Assembly: GCA_038228545.1 (NCBI GenBank)
Contig: JBBRPE010000003.1
Location: forward strand, 64,442-128,441
Length of the DNA stretch: 64,000 nt
Direction of reading: 5' to 3'
DNA from: Minisyncoccia bacterium
GTDB taxonomy: Bacteria > Patescibacteriota > Minisyncoccia > Phycocordibacterales > Phycocordibacteraceae
The notes beneath the pieces are model-generated. The model was given only the letters and a program-made list of their open reading frames with translations, did no database searches and was not told the DNA's origin. This document shows, piece by piece, positions 26,842-62,812 of this stretch; the stretch's first letter is position 1; each line of letters begins with the position of its first letter. Both the position numbers and the translations under genes were made by a program.

Positions 26842-27234
26842 CTAAAAATGAATGACGGTCGCGTCTGACGAAGACTGTCCACTATCGAGTGTCGAGTGCA
26901 CTTGCGTGTCTACGATAGTGATGGCGGTAGGCGAGGAGGTGGCGCCTACAGCGGCGCCTGCGGCGCCGACAAGCTGTGAAAAACTATTTGAATTCTGCGT
27001 AATCGCCTCTTTAAAATTCGGTGCATTCTGATCGGTCGAAGCGAATGTCGACGGAGCGAGCGAGAACGTGCCACCAAGTGCGTTTGCAGCAAACCACCCG
27101 AGTGCAACGACAAGTGTAACGCCACCAGCTACACCCAAGGCGATATTCTGACGCACATGGAGTGGCTTCTGGCGGAGGTCGTGCACTACTTCATGGACGC
27201 GCTTTGTTTCCATACTGTTACGGGGTAATAACAA
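26842..27234 (-). CDS. Hypothetical membrane-anchored protein
   Basis: One TM helix (IALGVAGGVTLVVALGWF). Ala/Ser-rich. Confidence 0.4.
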   Translation of the reverse strand: MLLPRNSMETKRVHEVVHDLRQKPLHVRQNIALGVAGGVTLVVALGWFAANALGGTFSLAPSTFASTDQNAPNFKEAITQNSNSFSQLVGAAGAAVGATSSPTAITIVDTQVHSTLDSGQSSSDATVIHF

Positions 27235-27859
27235 TTATAGCCCCATCTTTGTCCGCAGCATCCTTTTTCTTGAGGGTAAGTTTGTCGACTGTTTCTGCAG
27301 AGCCACCCTCCTCTTTAAGGTACGCTTCCAGAGACTTTGGCTCGCCCATGCCGTTCCAGTGCATCGGAATTACGATTCGTGGCTCAAGCGTGACTGCGAG
27401 CTTAGCGGCCTTTGCTGCATCAAGCACCCCATCGCCACCAACAGGAAGGAAGAGCACGTCAATTTCATCAATTGCTTCGCGCGCCTCTTGCGAGAGCATG
27501 GGGTCGTTAAGGGCACCAAGGTGCACGAGTGTCATACCTTCGAGCCCCACTGCGTAGACCGTGTTGACTGCGGAGTCTTGGCCGTTACCAAGTGCGTATT
27601 CGCTCTTGGTCAGAAATCCCTGCACGGTGACGCCTGAGTGCTCGTATTCACCTGGGCCTGTGATGGCAAATGGTTCCTTGCCATTAAACGAAACTTCCTC
27701 CAGACCATTCATATTTGGATGATTTCGCGACACGAGTGCAAGGTCTGCGCCAAAGCGTACCGCAGGAAGGGTACCTTTCTTAGAAATAGGATCGAAGACG
27801 ACGGTGAGGTCGCCAAACGTCACCTTGAAGCACTGCCCGCCGTGGTGGGTGATTACCAT
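27218..27859 (-). CDS. MBL-fold metallo-hydrolase
   Basis: Start set at MVITHHGGQCFKV. Beta-lactamase-fold pattern (HHGG…D…H). Confidence 0.6.
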   Translation of the reverse strand: MVITHHGGQCFKVTFGDLTVVFDPISKKGTLPAVRFGADLALVSRNHPNMNGLEEVSFNGKEPFAITGPGEYEHSGVTVQGFLTKSEYALGNGQDSAVNTVYAVGLEGMTLVHLGALNDPMLSQEAREAIDEIDVLFLPVGGDGVLDAAKAAKLAVTLEPRIVIPMHWNGMGEPKSLEAYLKEEGGSAETVDKLTLKKKDAADKDGAIIVITP

Positions 27860-28899
27860 TGTGGAGACATTATACCTTGAAAAAGCTACGTGTGGTAGCT
27901 TCATAGTAGGAACGCAACCCTGCGTTCCTAACCTATGAAAGGTTCGTTTTGCCTTTGAACCAAGCACCCAATTGATGGGGAGCTTGGTTCATTGAAAAAA
28001 CGTTCGCCCCCCACTTCACCCTGTTGAAGTGGTGTTGTTTTACCGGCTCTTCATTGACCCAACAGGGAAGTTAGGTTATATTTCTCATGTCGCCCAACTG
28101 GGGCGATTTCCATTTGGAGGTGAGCTGTGAGCCACACTGACGATACTCTGACTCTGACACGGCCTCCGAAGGCCTCGTTCTTCCAACACCAGGATCCCCC
28201 TCGCTCCAACTTCGTGAGCGTCGCGGGAGGTAGCAATGGCAAGCCGCCTCTGGGCTCTGACGGCAGAAACAACATGCCTGCCGACGATGCCGGCGACCCG
28301 ACGGCCAAGCGTACCGGCACGAACGGCTAGAACATCATGGGCCAAGAAACTCATGAAGAACTTCCGGCGATCCGGCACACGCCAGTGAGCCACGGCGACC
28401 TTGGTCAGGACGACTTTGACGACGACTACCCGGACGGCAGCAAACCGCTCCCGCCGAGCACCGTCTACAACTAACCGAACAGGCGAGCGTAACAGGGAAG
28501 CCGACCCCCTTTAGAGGGTCATAGGGAGGACACCCCCATGTCCAAACCAAAAATCCTGTATGCGCGCCGTGGTGGAGGGGACAGCGTTTCCTCCACCACA
28601 CCAACTTGCTCTTTATGTTCTAAACCTTCGCCACTAGGGCGAACTACACATTCAAGGTCTACCTACACGGGTGGGCCTTTATTCGTTATGTGAAGAGATG
28701 AGAATGTAATGTGCGCACTTCCCTGTCTCGGCTAAAAAAGTTATCCACAGGTGCTTGATTTTAGTAAAAGTTATGTTGGAACCGATTTTCCGACCTATGT
28801 TCAGCTGAAAGATTTGGATTTAAAGTTTCTCGTAATTCGAAAAATATTTGAGTGGATAGAGCGAGAGAACCCCTACTTCCCTGCCTCACTACGGAAAAC

Positions 28900-28927
28900 T
28901 TGACACTAAAATAACGGGTGCTATAGT
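28900..28927 (+). promoter_or_regulatory. Near-consensus sigma70 promoter
   Basis: TTGACA, 16 nt, TGcTATAGT. Followed by a leader hairpin plus T-tract (gagggctcgccctcttttttc) and then the 49-aa ORF. Confidence 0.45.
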
Positions 28928-29027
28928 GCTTTCACTGACTGGTGCGGTAGTTCGTTATTGAGGGCTCGCCCTCTTTTTTCGTTCCCGATGAACTAGACAG
29001 CTGAACCTCGCAAAGGAGATTGCCCAT

Positions 29028-29177
29028 GAAGACCTCTTCGACCCGCTCGATGTTGAAACCCATCCCCCTGGCCGCCGGCCTGGCCCTGTCCGCCGCCGCC
29101 ATCGGCGCCGGCATCATGCTGGCCAAGCGCAGCAACAAGTCCAACCCGGCCGGCGCCGTCCCCAAGGCGGCCTGATC
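29028..29177 (+). CDS. Small hydrophobic peptide (49 aa, single TM), extremely GC-rich
   Basis: RBS AAGGAG 7 nt upstream. Sequence MKTSSTRSMLKPIPLAAGLALSAAAIGAGIMLAKRSNKSNPAGAVPKAA. About 68% GC with GC3 near-saturated, versus about 55% for the genome. Followed by a palindromic terminator (ggcccgac…gtcgggcc). Confidence 0.4.
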
Positions 29178-29377
29178 GGACAAAGGCCCGACACGCCCCC
29201 CCCCGACTAGTCGGGCCTCCAGCCCCCATCGCATGTAAAGTGCGGTGGGAGTTTTGCTTTATTGCTCAATTCCCCACTATTTGCTATATTCCCTGAGTTA
29301 AGGCGAGAGCAGTACGGAGGCGTTAACCCTGAAAGTCGCAAGGCTTCAGCACCCTTCAGAACGTCCGTCTCTTATAT

Positions 29378-30508
29378 ATGGAAACAGAAGAGAAGAAAGC
29401 TGCCCCAGTGGTAGCGTCTACGATAGTTATTGACCCGAGCCACCCGATGGCAGGGCTGATTGACTCTATCCCTACCCCACCTCGCCCAGGCGACTTGGTA
29501 GAAGGAACAATCATCGAGCTCGTCCGCGGCCGCCTCTTTGTCGACTTGCCACCGTTCGGCACCGGCATCATTTACGGACGTGAGTACCTCAACGCTGCTG
29601 ATGTGCTTCGCAAGGCAAACCCTGGCGACACCATTACGGCAAAGGTCGTTGACCCAGCAGGTATCGAAGGCTATATCGAACTTTCTCTCAAGGAAGCTCG
29701 TCAGGCAGCTATCTGGGGAGAGGCCGAGCAGGCTATCGCAGGCCAGGTGGTCTACAACCTCGTCGTTGAGGAAGCAAACAAGGGTGGACTCATCCTCTCA
29801 TGGCAGGGTATCCAGGGCTTCCTCCCTGCTTCCCAGCTCTCGAAGGACCACTACCCACGTGTACCAGAGGGCGACAAGGATAAGATTTTCGGTGAGCTCT
29901 TGAAGCTCGTCGGTGTCGCACTCCCGGTCCGCATCATTACCGCTGAGCCAAAGGAAGGTAAGCTCATCTTCTCTGAGCGCGCAGGTGATGAAGAGCAGGA
30001 AAAGGCAAACCTTATCGACAAGTACCAGGTTGGTGACGAAGTCACGGGCGAGGTTACGGGTGCTGTCGACTTCGGTGTCTTCGTTAAGCTCGAGCAGGGT
30101 CTTGAAGGACTCGTGCACATCTCTGAGCTCGACTGGGGCCTCGTGGAAGACCCACGCGCACTCTTCACGGTCGGTGACCAGGTGAAGGTCAAGGTTATTG
30201 AAATCAAGGACGGAAAGATTTCCCTCTCCATCAAGGCACTCAAGGAGAATCCTTGGAAGACCGCTTCTGACCGTTACACGAAGGGCATGGAAGTAAATGG
30301 CGTTATCATCAAGTACAACAAGCACGGTGCACTCGCTTCCATCGAGGAAGGTGTTGCCGGCCTTGTACACATCAGCGAGTTCGCTTCCCCAGTGGAGCTC
30401 CGCGAGACGCTTGAGCTTGGTAAGAGCTATCCGTTCTCCATTACCCTCTTTGAGCCAAAGGACCAGAGGATGACGCTTGCGTACTCGGGACCGAAGGGCA
30501 AAAAATAG
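29378..30508 (+). CDS. rpsA: 30S ribosomal protein S1 (four S1 domains)
   Basis: Repeated S1 RNA-binding domain pattern (GxV.G.V…G.FV.L..g.eGLvHiSE). Confidence 0.8.
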   Translation: METEEKKAAPVVASTIVIDPSHPMAGLIDSIPTPPRPGDLVEGTIIELVRGRLFVDLPPFGTGIIYGREYLNAADVLRKANPGDTITAKVVDPAGIEGYIELSLKEARQAAIWGEAEQAIAGQVVYNLVVEEANKGGLILSWQGIQGFLPASQLSKDHYPRVPEGDKDKIFGELLKLVGVALPVRIITAEPKEGKLIFSERAGDEEQEKANLIDKYQVGDEVTGEVTGAVDFGVFVKLEQGLEGLVHISELDWGLVEDPRALFTVGDQVKVKVIEIKDGKISLSIKALKENPWKTASDRYTKGMEVNGVIIKYNKHGALASIEEGVAGLVHISEFASPVELRETLELGKSYPFSITLFEPKDQRMTLAYSGPKGKK

Positions 30509-30682: not shown

Positions 30683-30825
30683 TGAGGTAGATAAGAAAAA
30701 TGAGGAAACCTCGCTTTTCCTCAGTACAGGGTGTCTGGTACGACGTGGGAACCGCGATACTTGACCAAAGGAAATATTAGTATTATAGTTTCCCCACGTT
30801 TACGGGTTTCTTAGAGGAGATTCTG

Positions 30826-31209
30826 ATGCCCAAGGTAACTATGTACTTTCAAATGGACTTACTGCCCCGAGAGTTCATGCTCAAGTTCGACCACAAGAAG
30901 GCGGGATTGGCTATCCGCCAGCTGGTCGCAGACGCGGTGAGCACCGAAGGTACAATCTTCGGCATCGACGACGTGGACTTCTTACCCACTATGTATCCCC
31001 CTGGGACCCAGGTGTCGGCACCGCTCTCGTTCGAAATCGAGACCATCGGCTACACCGACCGGAAAGCGAAGTTGAGAGAGGGCCTGGTGCAGCAACTCAA
31101 GTCTGACATCATCAAGACGATGGCAGACGGGCCCTACGGCGTCGAGCTCGATCCGGACAAGCCGCTCATATGGCTAAAATTCCAGGACCCGGATGGACTC
31201 CACATCTAA
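30826..31209 (+). CDS. Hypothetical protein
   Basis: RBS GGAGA. 127 aa. No motif recognised. Confidence 0.5.
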   Translation: MPKVTMYFQMDLLPREFMLKFDHKKAGLAIRQLVADAVSTEGTIFGIDDVDFLPTMYPPGTQVSAPLSFEIETIGYTDRKAKLREGLVQQLKSDIIKTMADGPYGVELDPDKPLIWLKFQDPDGLHI

Positions 31210-62470: not shown

Positions 62471-62477
62471 ATGTTTG

Positions 62478-62812
62478 TTGGACTGGTTCGATAAGCCGAA
62501 TTCTGTCATTCCCGGAGGAACGGACGACCATTTATCTGGGCCGTATGTTGCCATACGGCTCGAGCGGCACCCCTTCCGAAGAAGGTACGGCCTTGCACCG
62601 AAGTAAGGATTTTGCCGTTTCAGCCTGAAGTCGCCCTCAGGACGCTCTACGAGAGAGCATCTACCCTTTCGGGATCGATCGTTTCTGTTCGCACCTCGCA
62701 CATTACTGTGGACGGGCGTTACCCGCTACCCTTCTGCCTGCATTGCTGCAAGCCGGAGTTCGGACTTTCCTCAGCACGCGAGCGGTGTTGCGATCGTCTG
62801 AACCAGTCCGAA
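62478..62812 (-). ncRNA. rnpB: RNase P RNA (bacterial type A, reduced)
   Basis: Minus strand carries AGGAAAGUCCGAACUCC (P4 5' strand with bulged U), GGGUAACGCC, and ACAGAAUUCGGCUUAUCG (P4 3' strand; GAA/UUC compensates the usual GGG/CCC). P1 is GGACUGGUUC/GAACCAGUCC. TGgTATAAT -10 box at 62813-62821. Confidence 0.85.

Follow-up and report, generated by a model that had tools for sequence, protein, structure and literature searches.

Stem-loops that start at the 5' end of a bacterial transcript and stabilize it are known from the Escherichia coli ompA 5' untranslated region (5'UTR), the Bacillus subtilis aprE leader, and the Bacillus thuringiensis cryIIIA STAB-SD. Attenuators that carry an intrinsic terminator in the 5' leader are another known regulatory class. 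In E. coli and other gamma-proteobacteria, rpsA, the gene for ribosomal protein S1, reportedly has a translational operator, described by Boni, Tchufistova and colleagues (2001-2003). Two kinds of small membrane protein also bear on the locus described here: the toxins of type I toxin-antitoxin systems (Hok/Sok, TisB/IstR, Ldr, Ibs), which are usually shorter than 60 amino acids (aa), and YtxH, a small membrane-anchored protein with an N-terminal transmembrane (TM) helix and an amphipathic Ala/Lys-rich tail, an arrangement that is reversed in ElaB/YqjD (DUF883). Patescibacteria (the candidate phyla radiation, CPR) are abundant and mostly uncultivated, and their genomes are tiny; to our knowledge, almost nothing is known about their gene regulation. 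We analyzed a stretch of 64,000 nucleotides (nt) from one of them (Minisyncoccia bacterium, contig JBBRPE010000003.1, positions 64,442 to 128,441; hereafter the window), in particular the spacer between the divergently transcribed gene for a metallo-beta-lactamase (MBL)-fold hydrolase and rpsA. An initial annotation, made from the sequence alone, had described most of this spacer as a compositionally anomalous, largely non-coding island that contains a promoter, a leader hairpin, and the gene of a small membrane peptide.

The spacer lies between these two genes as described; its extent had to be corrected to 27860-29377, since the MBL start codon is at 27859 (213 aa, as in the orthologs). Neither strand of the spacer carries an open reading frame (ORF) longer than 102 aa, in agreement with a largely non-coding region. 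We consider it likely that the "island" is a hypervariable divergent MBL-rpsA spacer of Paceibacteria (Parcubacteria/"Kaiserbacteria"-like CPR) that is built as a mosaic of four units: a cassette for a small membrane protein (28900-29250), the rpsA promoter and leader (29282-29377), an orphan unit (28054-28690), and a decayed duplicate of a promoter (28717-28800). The coordinates of the individual features are collected in Table 1.

One genome per species was scanned with the rpsA protein, which returned 80 related loci (labeled L001, L004, and so on) with rpsA identities of 77-91%. The gene order gyrA, a 130-aa gene (p130), MBL hydrolase, gap, rpsA is conserved in about 75 of these 80 loci. 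In 75 species the gap measures between 12 and 3037 nt (median 1003 nt); 12 species have gaps below 250 nt, and 38 have gaps of 1 kb or more. The gap content is mostly species-specific and differs even among species whose rpsA sequences are 91% identical. When the loci were compared at the DNA level, relatives matched just the final ~100 nt of the window's spacer, which correspond to the rpsA leader. Because the length and content of the gap vary and only these last ~100 nt match relatives, we read the spacer as a hot spot of content turnover. ORFs with a GC content at third codon positions (GC3) of 0.85 or more occur in the gaps of 23 of 76 sequences (the 75 relatives and the window), and many of them encode proteins with predicted signal peptides or TM segments. 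In 41 of 63 species, the gap has a higher GC content than the remainder of the locus (p=0.009); the difference is slight.

The first clue that the cassette has homologs was a weak tblastx/blastn match to L034. Iterated nhmmer searches of the 80 species loci and the window recovered its leader in 8 sequences (E=2e-10 for the window leader). In all, the cassette is present at the MBL-rpsA locus in at least 10 of the 80 species and in 13 metagenome contigs. A scan of metagenome contigs with an exact leader pattern, which has zero chance matches within the window, yielded 8 matches; 6 are complete cassettes and 2 are due to chance. Seven contigs were found by protein homology alone (six family proteins). 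All seven carry the leader directly upstream of the gene and a divergent MBL hydrolase gene whose start lies 188-209 nt from the ATG of the peptide, and rpsA follows downstream wherever the contig is long enough. The geometry is the same in every copy: a -35 element, 16-17 nt, a -10 element, 6 nt, and ACTGAC. The leaders are 92-109 nt long, and a strong terminator is found behind each orthologous ORF. Synteny is conserved, and the gene is single-copy. Diverged copies are found in L004, without the hairpin named P2 below, and in L006. These observations indicate that 28900-29250 is a conserved cassette that is inherited vertically. In L019 (3241-3294), the cassette ORF seems to carry a frameshift close to its beginning: the frame of the ATG meets a stop codon after 17 codons (GC3 0.76), the family frame goes on, and the NCBI product is annotated as partial (P0004). 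Either an assembly error or a genuine disruption could be the cause.

Promoter, ribosome binding site, single-TM ORF, structured leader, and terminator are all present in the window copy, and the proposed small-protein module with leader control stands to that extent. A sigma-70 consensus scan over 20 kb, in which the overall number of matches was at chance level, had its best match at the promoter that had been recognized before (TTGACA, a 16-nt spacer, and TGcTATAGT). The predicted transcription start site (TSS) is A28934, which follows the -10 element after 6 nt and is the first nucleotide of ACTGAC, as in all orthologs. A CA-rich linker and the Shine-Dalgarno (SD) sequence lie between the leader hairpin and the ORF. 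The ORF itself, with its SD (AAGGAGA) and its single-TM product of 49 aa, had been recognized correctly; its position is 29026..29175 and not 29028..29177. The palindrome after the ORF and the terminator that follows it were both recovered. A small stem in front of the ORF holds the SD in its loop. By eye, equivalent stems of other sequence are present in most orthologs; an automatic test on minimum free energy (MFE) folds placed the SD in a loop in only 6 of 18 leaders, and this hairpin was rejected as a conserved feature and kept as a weak one.

The composition of the ORF does differ from that of other genes (GC 0.71, GC3 0.94-0.96, versus GC3 of 0.37-0.77 in the 53 long ORFs of the window), and GC reaches 0.685 at 29.0-29.2 kb against a window mean of 0.52. 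This anomaly had been taken as a possible foreign signature. Every complete orthologous cassette ORF has a GC3 of 0.81-0.96 in genomes of differing GC content, and because all of them share this range the high GC3 appears to be a family trait and not a foreign signature.

A profile search among 5.8 billion proteins placed 14 clusters in the cassette protein family, with lengths of 78-114 aa and long hydrophilic tails; an exhaustive HMMER scan of 1.84 billion representatives yielded only 12 clusters. The family is thus a narrow one, of Paceibacteria. Short forms of 41-58 aa are encoded at L001, L004, L006, and L034. The window protein, a short form like those of L001 and L034, aligns with the N-terminal ~46 residues of the family. 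The members share little besides an architecture (mean column identity 23-35%), which consists of a basic N-terminus, an Ala/Gly-rich TM helix, a K/R cluster, and an A/G/K-rich tail. YtxH (PF12732) and, in reverse arrangement, ElaB/YqjD have the same overall architecture, and the resemblance does not extend beyond it. The window peptide and six orthologs had no match in Pfam (none to YtxH at E<=5), and a search of NCBIfam at permissive thresholds returned nothing relevant; membership in YtxH was therefore ruled out.

The leader of the cassette is predicted to fold into a 5'-terminal rod hairpin of ~70 nt, which contains the invariant core GAGGG-N4-CCCUCUUUU-NN-CGUUC. The leader hairpin with T6 of the initial annotation (GAGGGCTCGCCCTC plus T6, 28960-28979) is present and corresponds to P2 (GAGGG-CUCG-CCCUC, 28960-28973), followed by U6 and CGUUCC (28974-28985). 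In the window, a basal helix, P0, pairs the first transcript nucleotides (CUG/CAG). Each of the folded rods begins at or beside +1 with the base ACUG/CAGU or CUGAC/GUCAG; the middle helix is variable and pairs GGA..CG with the invariant CGUUCC, and the apex is GAGGG-N4-CCCUC, often with a GNRA loop. Covariance models (CMs) were built iteratively, and pairs were counted on the model-fitted alignments. CM R2 scored the window leader at 30.7 bits (E=1e-4 in 740 kb) and found no second site. In alignment A8 (12 sequences), 84% of the cells are paired versus 38-63% in slid controls; the values for A10 (18 distinct sequences) are 82% versus 40-55%. The covariation scores are 0.254 and 0.228 for A8 and A10, with shuffle means of 0.117 and 0.119, respectively, and none of 500 shuffles reached the observed score in either case. 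Double-sided changes were found in 8 pairs of A8 (shuffle mean 5.0). A hairpin at 27900-27938 (GCAACCCT...GCGTTCC) was considered as a relic of such a leader and discarded, as the CM does not detect it.

The second RNA, directly upstream of rpsA, was not part of the initial annotation. The rpsA gene would be transcribed from its own extended -10 promoter, whose consensus across the clade is TGcTAta.t (TGCTATAnT), and its ATG at 29378 is not preceded by an SD. Helix P2 of this leader (29316-29322/29352-29357, with a one-nucleotide bulge) closes an internal loop with the boxes TTAACC and AGCA, which read GCUAWCC and AGUA in relatives. Helix P3 (CUGAAAGUC-GCAA-GGCUUCAG, 29329-29349) is variable and usually GNRA-capped in relatives. 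CM R3 was built from A13, a sequence-only MAFFT alignment of 35 species. It scores the window copy at 53.6 bits (E=1e-11) and has 75 matches, one per locus, all of them directly upstream of rpsA (about 20-110 nt) and none elsewhere in 758 kb. In A13, 83.6% of the cells are paired (32-44% in slid controls), 14 of 16 pairs show double-sided changes against a shuffle mean of 9.4 (0/500 shuffles), and the covariation score is 0.428 versus 0.156. The larger alignment A16 has 85.7% of its cells paired and double-sided changes in 15 of 16 pairs; across A13 and A16, the slid controls range from 29 to 46%. A conserved, covarying secondary structure of the rpsA leader is thus strongly supported.

A known non-coding RNA model had been named as an alternative account of the region. 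A cmscan of 27000-30000 against Rfam 15, on both strands and at E<=1, gave 0 matches, and neither the cassette leader nor the rpsA leader belongs to an Rfam 15 family; what they would represent, a structured 5' leader and a ribosomal protein leader, are known kinds of RNA. A 2020 survey of 20 new ribosomal protein leaders mentions neither rpsA nor Parcubacteria/Patescibacteria (PMC7247131). We propose the rpsA leader as a candidate operator through which S1 would control its own synthesis. It resembles the E. coli rpsA operator in that it lies directly 5' of rpsA, has no SD, has a conserved structure, and occurs in one copy per genome. In contrast to the three successive hairpins of the E. coli operator, the element described here is a single bipartite rod (P2 and a GNRA-capped P3) with a GCUAWCC/AGUA internal loop; it is restricted to Paceibacteria, and its binding by S1 is predicted.

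Table 1. Features of the MBL-rpsA spacer, in window coordinates
Feature	Position	Strand	Evidence
Promoter of the divergent MBL-fold hydrolase gene (gene 27218-27859)	27860..27900	-	TATAAT 27869-27874, 9 nt before ATG
Four strong hairpins	27884..28032	.	Fold z=-6.7 (+), -6.2 (-)
Promoter-like site TTGACC-17-TATATT of the orphan unit	28054..28082	+	10/12 consensus match; one of four sites with at least 10/12 in 20 kb
Split frame o67/o45, acidic, proline-rich, possibly coding or pseudogenized	28127..28474	+	ORF list, GC pattern
Structured tail of the orphan unit: 14-bp hairpin, small hairpin, terminator 28654-28679	28475..28690	+	Fold z
Putative decayed duplicate of the cassette promoter region	28717..28800	+	Direct repeat D3; alignment with L001/L006 promoters
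Cassette promoter TTGACA-16-(TG)cTATAGT	28900..28927	+	11/12 consensus match
5'-terminal rod hairpin of the cassette leader (predicted)	28934..29003	+	nhmmer, CM, pair counts
Small stem GCAA/TTGC with SD AGGAGA in the loop	29010..29023	+	Weakly supported
49-aa single-TM protein MKTSSTRSMLKPIPLAAGLALSAAAIGAGIMLAKRSNKSNPAGAVPKAA	29026..29175	+	GC3 0.94-0.96, family alignment
Cassette 3' end: palindrome GGCCCGAC...GTCGGGCC 29185-29217, terminator 29225-29249 with T-run	29185..29255	+	Direct reading, fold z=-3.85
rpsA extended -10 promoter TGCTATATT	29282..29290	+	Consensus of 79 upstream regions
Structured rpsA 5'UTR	29311..29363	+	CM R3, covariation

The left part of the spacer is confined to this genome apart from its edge: the first ~40-65 nt upstream of the ATG of the MBL gene (Pfam Lactamase_B_3) align with L001 and L003. 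On the minus strand (27857-27874), this gene has a perfect TATAAT just 9 nt from its ATG and no SD, and for these two reasons its mRNA is probably leaderless or nearly so. The adjacent hairpin cluster comprises a perfect 10-bp core (27907-27930), a palindrome with 28-nt arms (27945-28002), and a terminator-like hairpin (28011-28032). The cluster is not conserved in relatives and is not repeated elsewhere in the window, and thus does not form a family of the repetitive extragenic palindrome type here; it might act as an insulator, a terminator, or a small RNA.

The segment 28054-28690 looks like an orphan transcription unit. Its parts would be, in order, a promoter, a 5' hairpin, an SD, a 115-codon frame with one TAG, a structured tail, and a terminator. 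The promoter-like site and the terminator, neither of which was in the initial annotation, flank the GC-rich part of the spacer, for which we measured a GC content of 0.60-0.63 at 28.1-28.6 kb against 0.52 for the window, as had been noted. The two short acidic ORFs reported there both exist; they are in the same frame, parted by one TAG and two codons. The first, o67, starts with GTG at 28127 after the SD GGAGG (28116-28120) and ends with TAG at 28328-28330; the second, o45, starts with ATG at 28337. The motif SH.DD that they were said to share is exact in the first (SHTDD), reads SHGDL in the second, and carries no statistical weight. Neither ORF has a match in Pfam or a homolog in the gaps of relatives, and o67, o45, o51, and o50, searched as one concatenated query, had no match at E<=1 among 5.8 billion protein clusters. 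In relatives, the slot of the orphan unit is taken by different small genes, each specific to its species; these often encode predicted secreted or membrane proteins and have a GC3 near 0.9.

As an alternative, 28054-28690 might be a non-coding RNA of ~600 nt, or might carry a structured RNA of ~200 nt at 28475-28690; we regard this as rather unlikely, though it deserves to be taken seriously. The tail (216 nt) has strand-specific structure, with a fold z of -4.9 on the plus strand versus -1.1 on the minus strand, and the whole unit has a z of -3.6. The strong hairpin GTGGTGGAGG/CCTCCACCAC pointed out earlier is part of this tail (28569-28599; a 14-bp hairpin at about 28567-28601), and a 51-aa ORF that overlaps the tail has a non-coding GC pattern (0.40/0.67/0.42 at codon positions 1/2/3). 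The absence of protein homologs from the 5.8 billion clusters and the in-frame TAG, which breaks the sole coding-like frame, also fit an RNA. The o67/o45 part, however, is unstructured (fold z about 0), is preceded by a strong and well-spaced SD, and shows the GC1>GC2<GC3 pattern of a gene (0.60/0.56/0.74 for o67 and 0.70/0.39/0.72 for o45), and the unit matches nothing in Rfam. A unit with a possibly coding or pseudogenized frame, which may be a young or a decaying gene, and a structured tail remains our preferred description.

The stretch to the right of the orphan unit had been called AT-rich, and its GC content is indeed 0.405-0.43 at 28.6-29.0 kb. Part of this is explained if 28717-28800 is, as its sequence indicates, a decayed tandem duplicate of the promoter region. 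It retains ACTTCCCTGTCTC (ACTTCCCTGyCTC; repeated at 28875-28887), a DnaA-box-like GTTATCCACAGGTG at 28740-28753, and TATGTT at 28772-28777. A perfect DnaA box, TTATCCACA, is located at 28741. In the window this box is in the decayed copy, and the active cassette promoter has none. Among the relatives, the box lies 5-7 nt upstream of a TTGACA -35 element or, as TTGACGTTATCCACAGG, within the spacer after TTGACG; these DnaA-box-operator promoters are of the TTATCCACAGG type, and examples are L001 2978-2995, L004 3009-3030, L006 1848-1870, L040, L020, and L010. The core of the box, TATCCACA, is ~30-fold enriched in MBL-rpsA gaps, which contain 17 of its 21 occurrences in 653 kb (0.213/kb versus 0.007/kb). 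Its enrichment at gap promoters suggests that the genes for small surface proteins at this locus are regulated by DnaA or by another factor. A replication origin at 28741 was ruled out, as the box is single and there is neither a cluster of boxes nor a turn in GC skew.

The gaps of relatives contain a second fast-evolving family, often under a DnaA-box promoter, of which the window has no copy. Its members, Gly/Asp/Ser-rich proteins of ~95-140 aa, begin with predicted signal peptides and are encoded with GC3 values of 0.86-0.98 (L004 3465-3782, L010, L011, L020, L026, L040, L042, L091 1158-1490, and L093 2120-2548). The frame o67/o45 was examined as a degenerate copy of this family and rejected: one pairwise score stood out (o45 versus L091_110), the family hidden Markov model gave a null result, and the resemblance is compositional. 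Downstream of rpsA, a promoter with a 10/12 match (30761-30789) precedes a 127-aa ORF (30826-31209), whose GC3 of 0.77 is the highest among the long ORFs of the window. This ORF has no Pfam match and no tblastn counterpart among the 80 related loci, and the region 3' of rpsA also holds lineage-specific, probably highly expressed genes. In the whole window, Rfam at gathering thresholds identified only an RNase P RNA (bacterial class A; 62476-62809, minus strand, 127 bits) and tRNAs, of which there are 11, scattered.

For the cassette, we favor a role of the leader as a 5' stabilizer or a binding site. Transcription would start at the invariant ACUGAC, driven by the near-consensus sigma-70 promoter, and the first nucleotides of the transcript would pair into the conserved rod. 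This 5'-terminal stem-loop may shield the mRNA from 5'-end-dependent decay, and the invariant P2, U-tract, and CGUUC may serve as a site of binding or pausing. In combination with the strong promoter and the C/G-ending codons, the stem-loop would make the expression of a small, abundant bitopic membrane protein high and possibly tunable. Like the stem-loops of ompA, aprE, and cryIIIA, the rod starts 0-1 nt from the 5' end and precedes an envelope protein gene that has a strong promoter. It differs from them in that its apical hairpin, U-tract, and CGUUC box are invariant in sequence, which a generic stabilizer does not need, and stabilization is predicted here. The invariance of these three elements suggests that, beyond the function of a generic 5' stem, a protein recognizes them specifically or the polymerase pauses there.

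The main rival to this role is transcription attenuation, in which P2 and the U-tract form an intrinsic terminator that is regulated by a protein, a small molecule, or the level of a nucleoside triphosphate. The leader would then determine whether a ~45-nt RNA or the full mRNA is made, instead of stabilizing the mRNA. As in known attenuators, a GC-rich hairpin with a U-tract is located ~27-46 nt into the leader. P2 with its U4-6 satisfies a terminator-like rule in the window (5 pairs, 4 of them GC, a loop of 4, then T6) and in most orthologs, and in some species (L040) an A-rich 5' flank could lengthen the stem. The sequence invariance of P2, U-tract, and CGUUC likewise indicates specific recognition and not a generic hairpin. 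The stem, however, has only 5-6 bp, compared to 8-20 pairs in the gene-end terminators of the same genome, and terminator-like matches with five pairs are common by chance. The MFE folds of 12 leaders contain no mutually exclusive antiterminator; instead, the outer helices enclose P2. L004 has the gene without P2, no riboswitch family was matched, and the ~25 nt upstream of P2 are too short for a typical aptamer; no aptamer-sized domain is present upstream. Because P2 is weak as a terminator and no competing antiterminator is seen, the stabilizer or binding-site role is favored, and we judge attenuation as the main function to be unlikely.

Horizontal acquisition was suggested in the initial annotation. 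One could still propose that foreign DNA was inserted between the MBL gene and rpsA and makes up the whole region or, at a minimum, the left 0.8 kb of it. With respect to strain-specificity, the region divides in two: 27900-28716 is unique to this genome, with no counterpart in the 80 related species, in metagenome-derived proteins, or in the protein clusters, and the cassette and the rpsA leader are shared with relatives. The uniqueness of the left part, the departure of the local GC content from the genome mean, and a slot whose content differs even at 91% rpsA identity are compatible with an insertion. On the other hand, the cassette and the rpsA leader are vertical and syntenic, and high GC and GC3 recur at this locus in other species, as described above. 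The scanned small ORFs of the island have no Pfam match and include no integrase or transposase, and no tRNA gene is nearby. Flanking repeats, att-like ones included, are at chance level except for a 13-nt repeat, which is explained by the promoter duplication. The region has no similarity to phages or plasmids; viral contigs contain no cassette, and the single pattern match among them is due to chance. An origin from a mobile element was rejected on these grounds. Because of the synteny, the orthologs, and the GC3 shared by the family, a horizontal origin of the peptide module is not supported: the same cassette sits at the same syntenic place in the species and metagenome contigs counted above. 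Nothing in 27900-28716 positively indicates a foreign origin, and insertion of foreign DNA is, in our view, improbable even for that part.

The weakest alternative, a type I toxin that is restrained by an antisense RNA together with its own structured 5'UTR, is highly improbable: the window copy is a small hydrophobic single-TM peptide of 49 aa behind a 5'UTR structured from +1, and forms of 41-58 aa recur at L001, L004, L006, and L034, but a consensus scan (a weak test) found no promoter-like site on the minus strand in 27500-29800, the SD is accessible and not sequestered by long-range pairing, the family members from the protein searches are mostly 78-114 aa long with hydrophilic tails, and a single-copy, syntenic gene with a consensus promoter and extreme C/G-ending codon bias fits constitutive high expression.

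More tentatively, we propose that the spacer as a whole is a dedicated, fast-turnover locus for small surface proteins, often expressed from DnaA-box promoters, with the S1 leader and the rod leader as its two RNA classes; we would put this reading close to an even call. Several points weigh against the account given here. For the cassette leader, A10 contains 6 pairs with double-sided changes, compared to a shuffle mean of 5.9, and the alignments were fitted to the model; because the double-change count in A10 does not exceed the shuffles and the alignments lean to the model, we rate the structural support for this leader as moderate. The rod of the window itself does not exceed shuffled sequences in stability (z=-0.5), L004 retains the gene without P2, and if the leader were a stabilizer alone, the invariance of P2, U-tract, and CGUUC would be left without an explanation. 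The TSS, the translation, and the abundance of the cassette product have all been read from the sequence, and binding of S1 to the rpsA leader is a prediction. The interpretation of GC3 as codon optimization is uncalibrated: the window has too few genes known to be highly expressed, and the Pfam annotation of its high-GC3 genes was uninformative in this respect. The coding status of o67/o45 is deduced solely from the SD, the GC pattern across codon positions, and the lack of structure, and the length of the ORFs is not significant in DNA with 62% GC.

The extreme GC3 of the small ORF has a cautionary side: here it reflects a conserved, gene-specific trait and is no mark of foreign DNA. Our literature search found no structured regulatory RNA described for Patescibacteria. 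If both leaders are functional, they would be, as far as the full-text literature searched is concerned, the first cis-regulatory RNAs defined specifically for this group. With the rpsA leader, present in ~70 species, S1 autoregulation would reach beyond the gamma-proteobacteria into a distant phylum, where the RNA fold is unrelated. Because the cassette proteins bear every sequence hallmark of very high expression, they are candidate major components of the envelope in these episymbionts. The locus may be a hot spot at which the genes of species-specific small secreted or membrane proteins are swapped, often behind a DnaA-box promoter.

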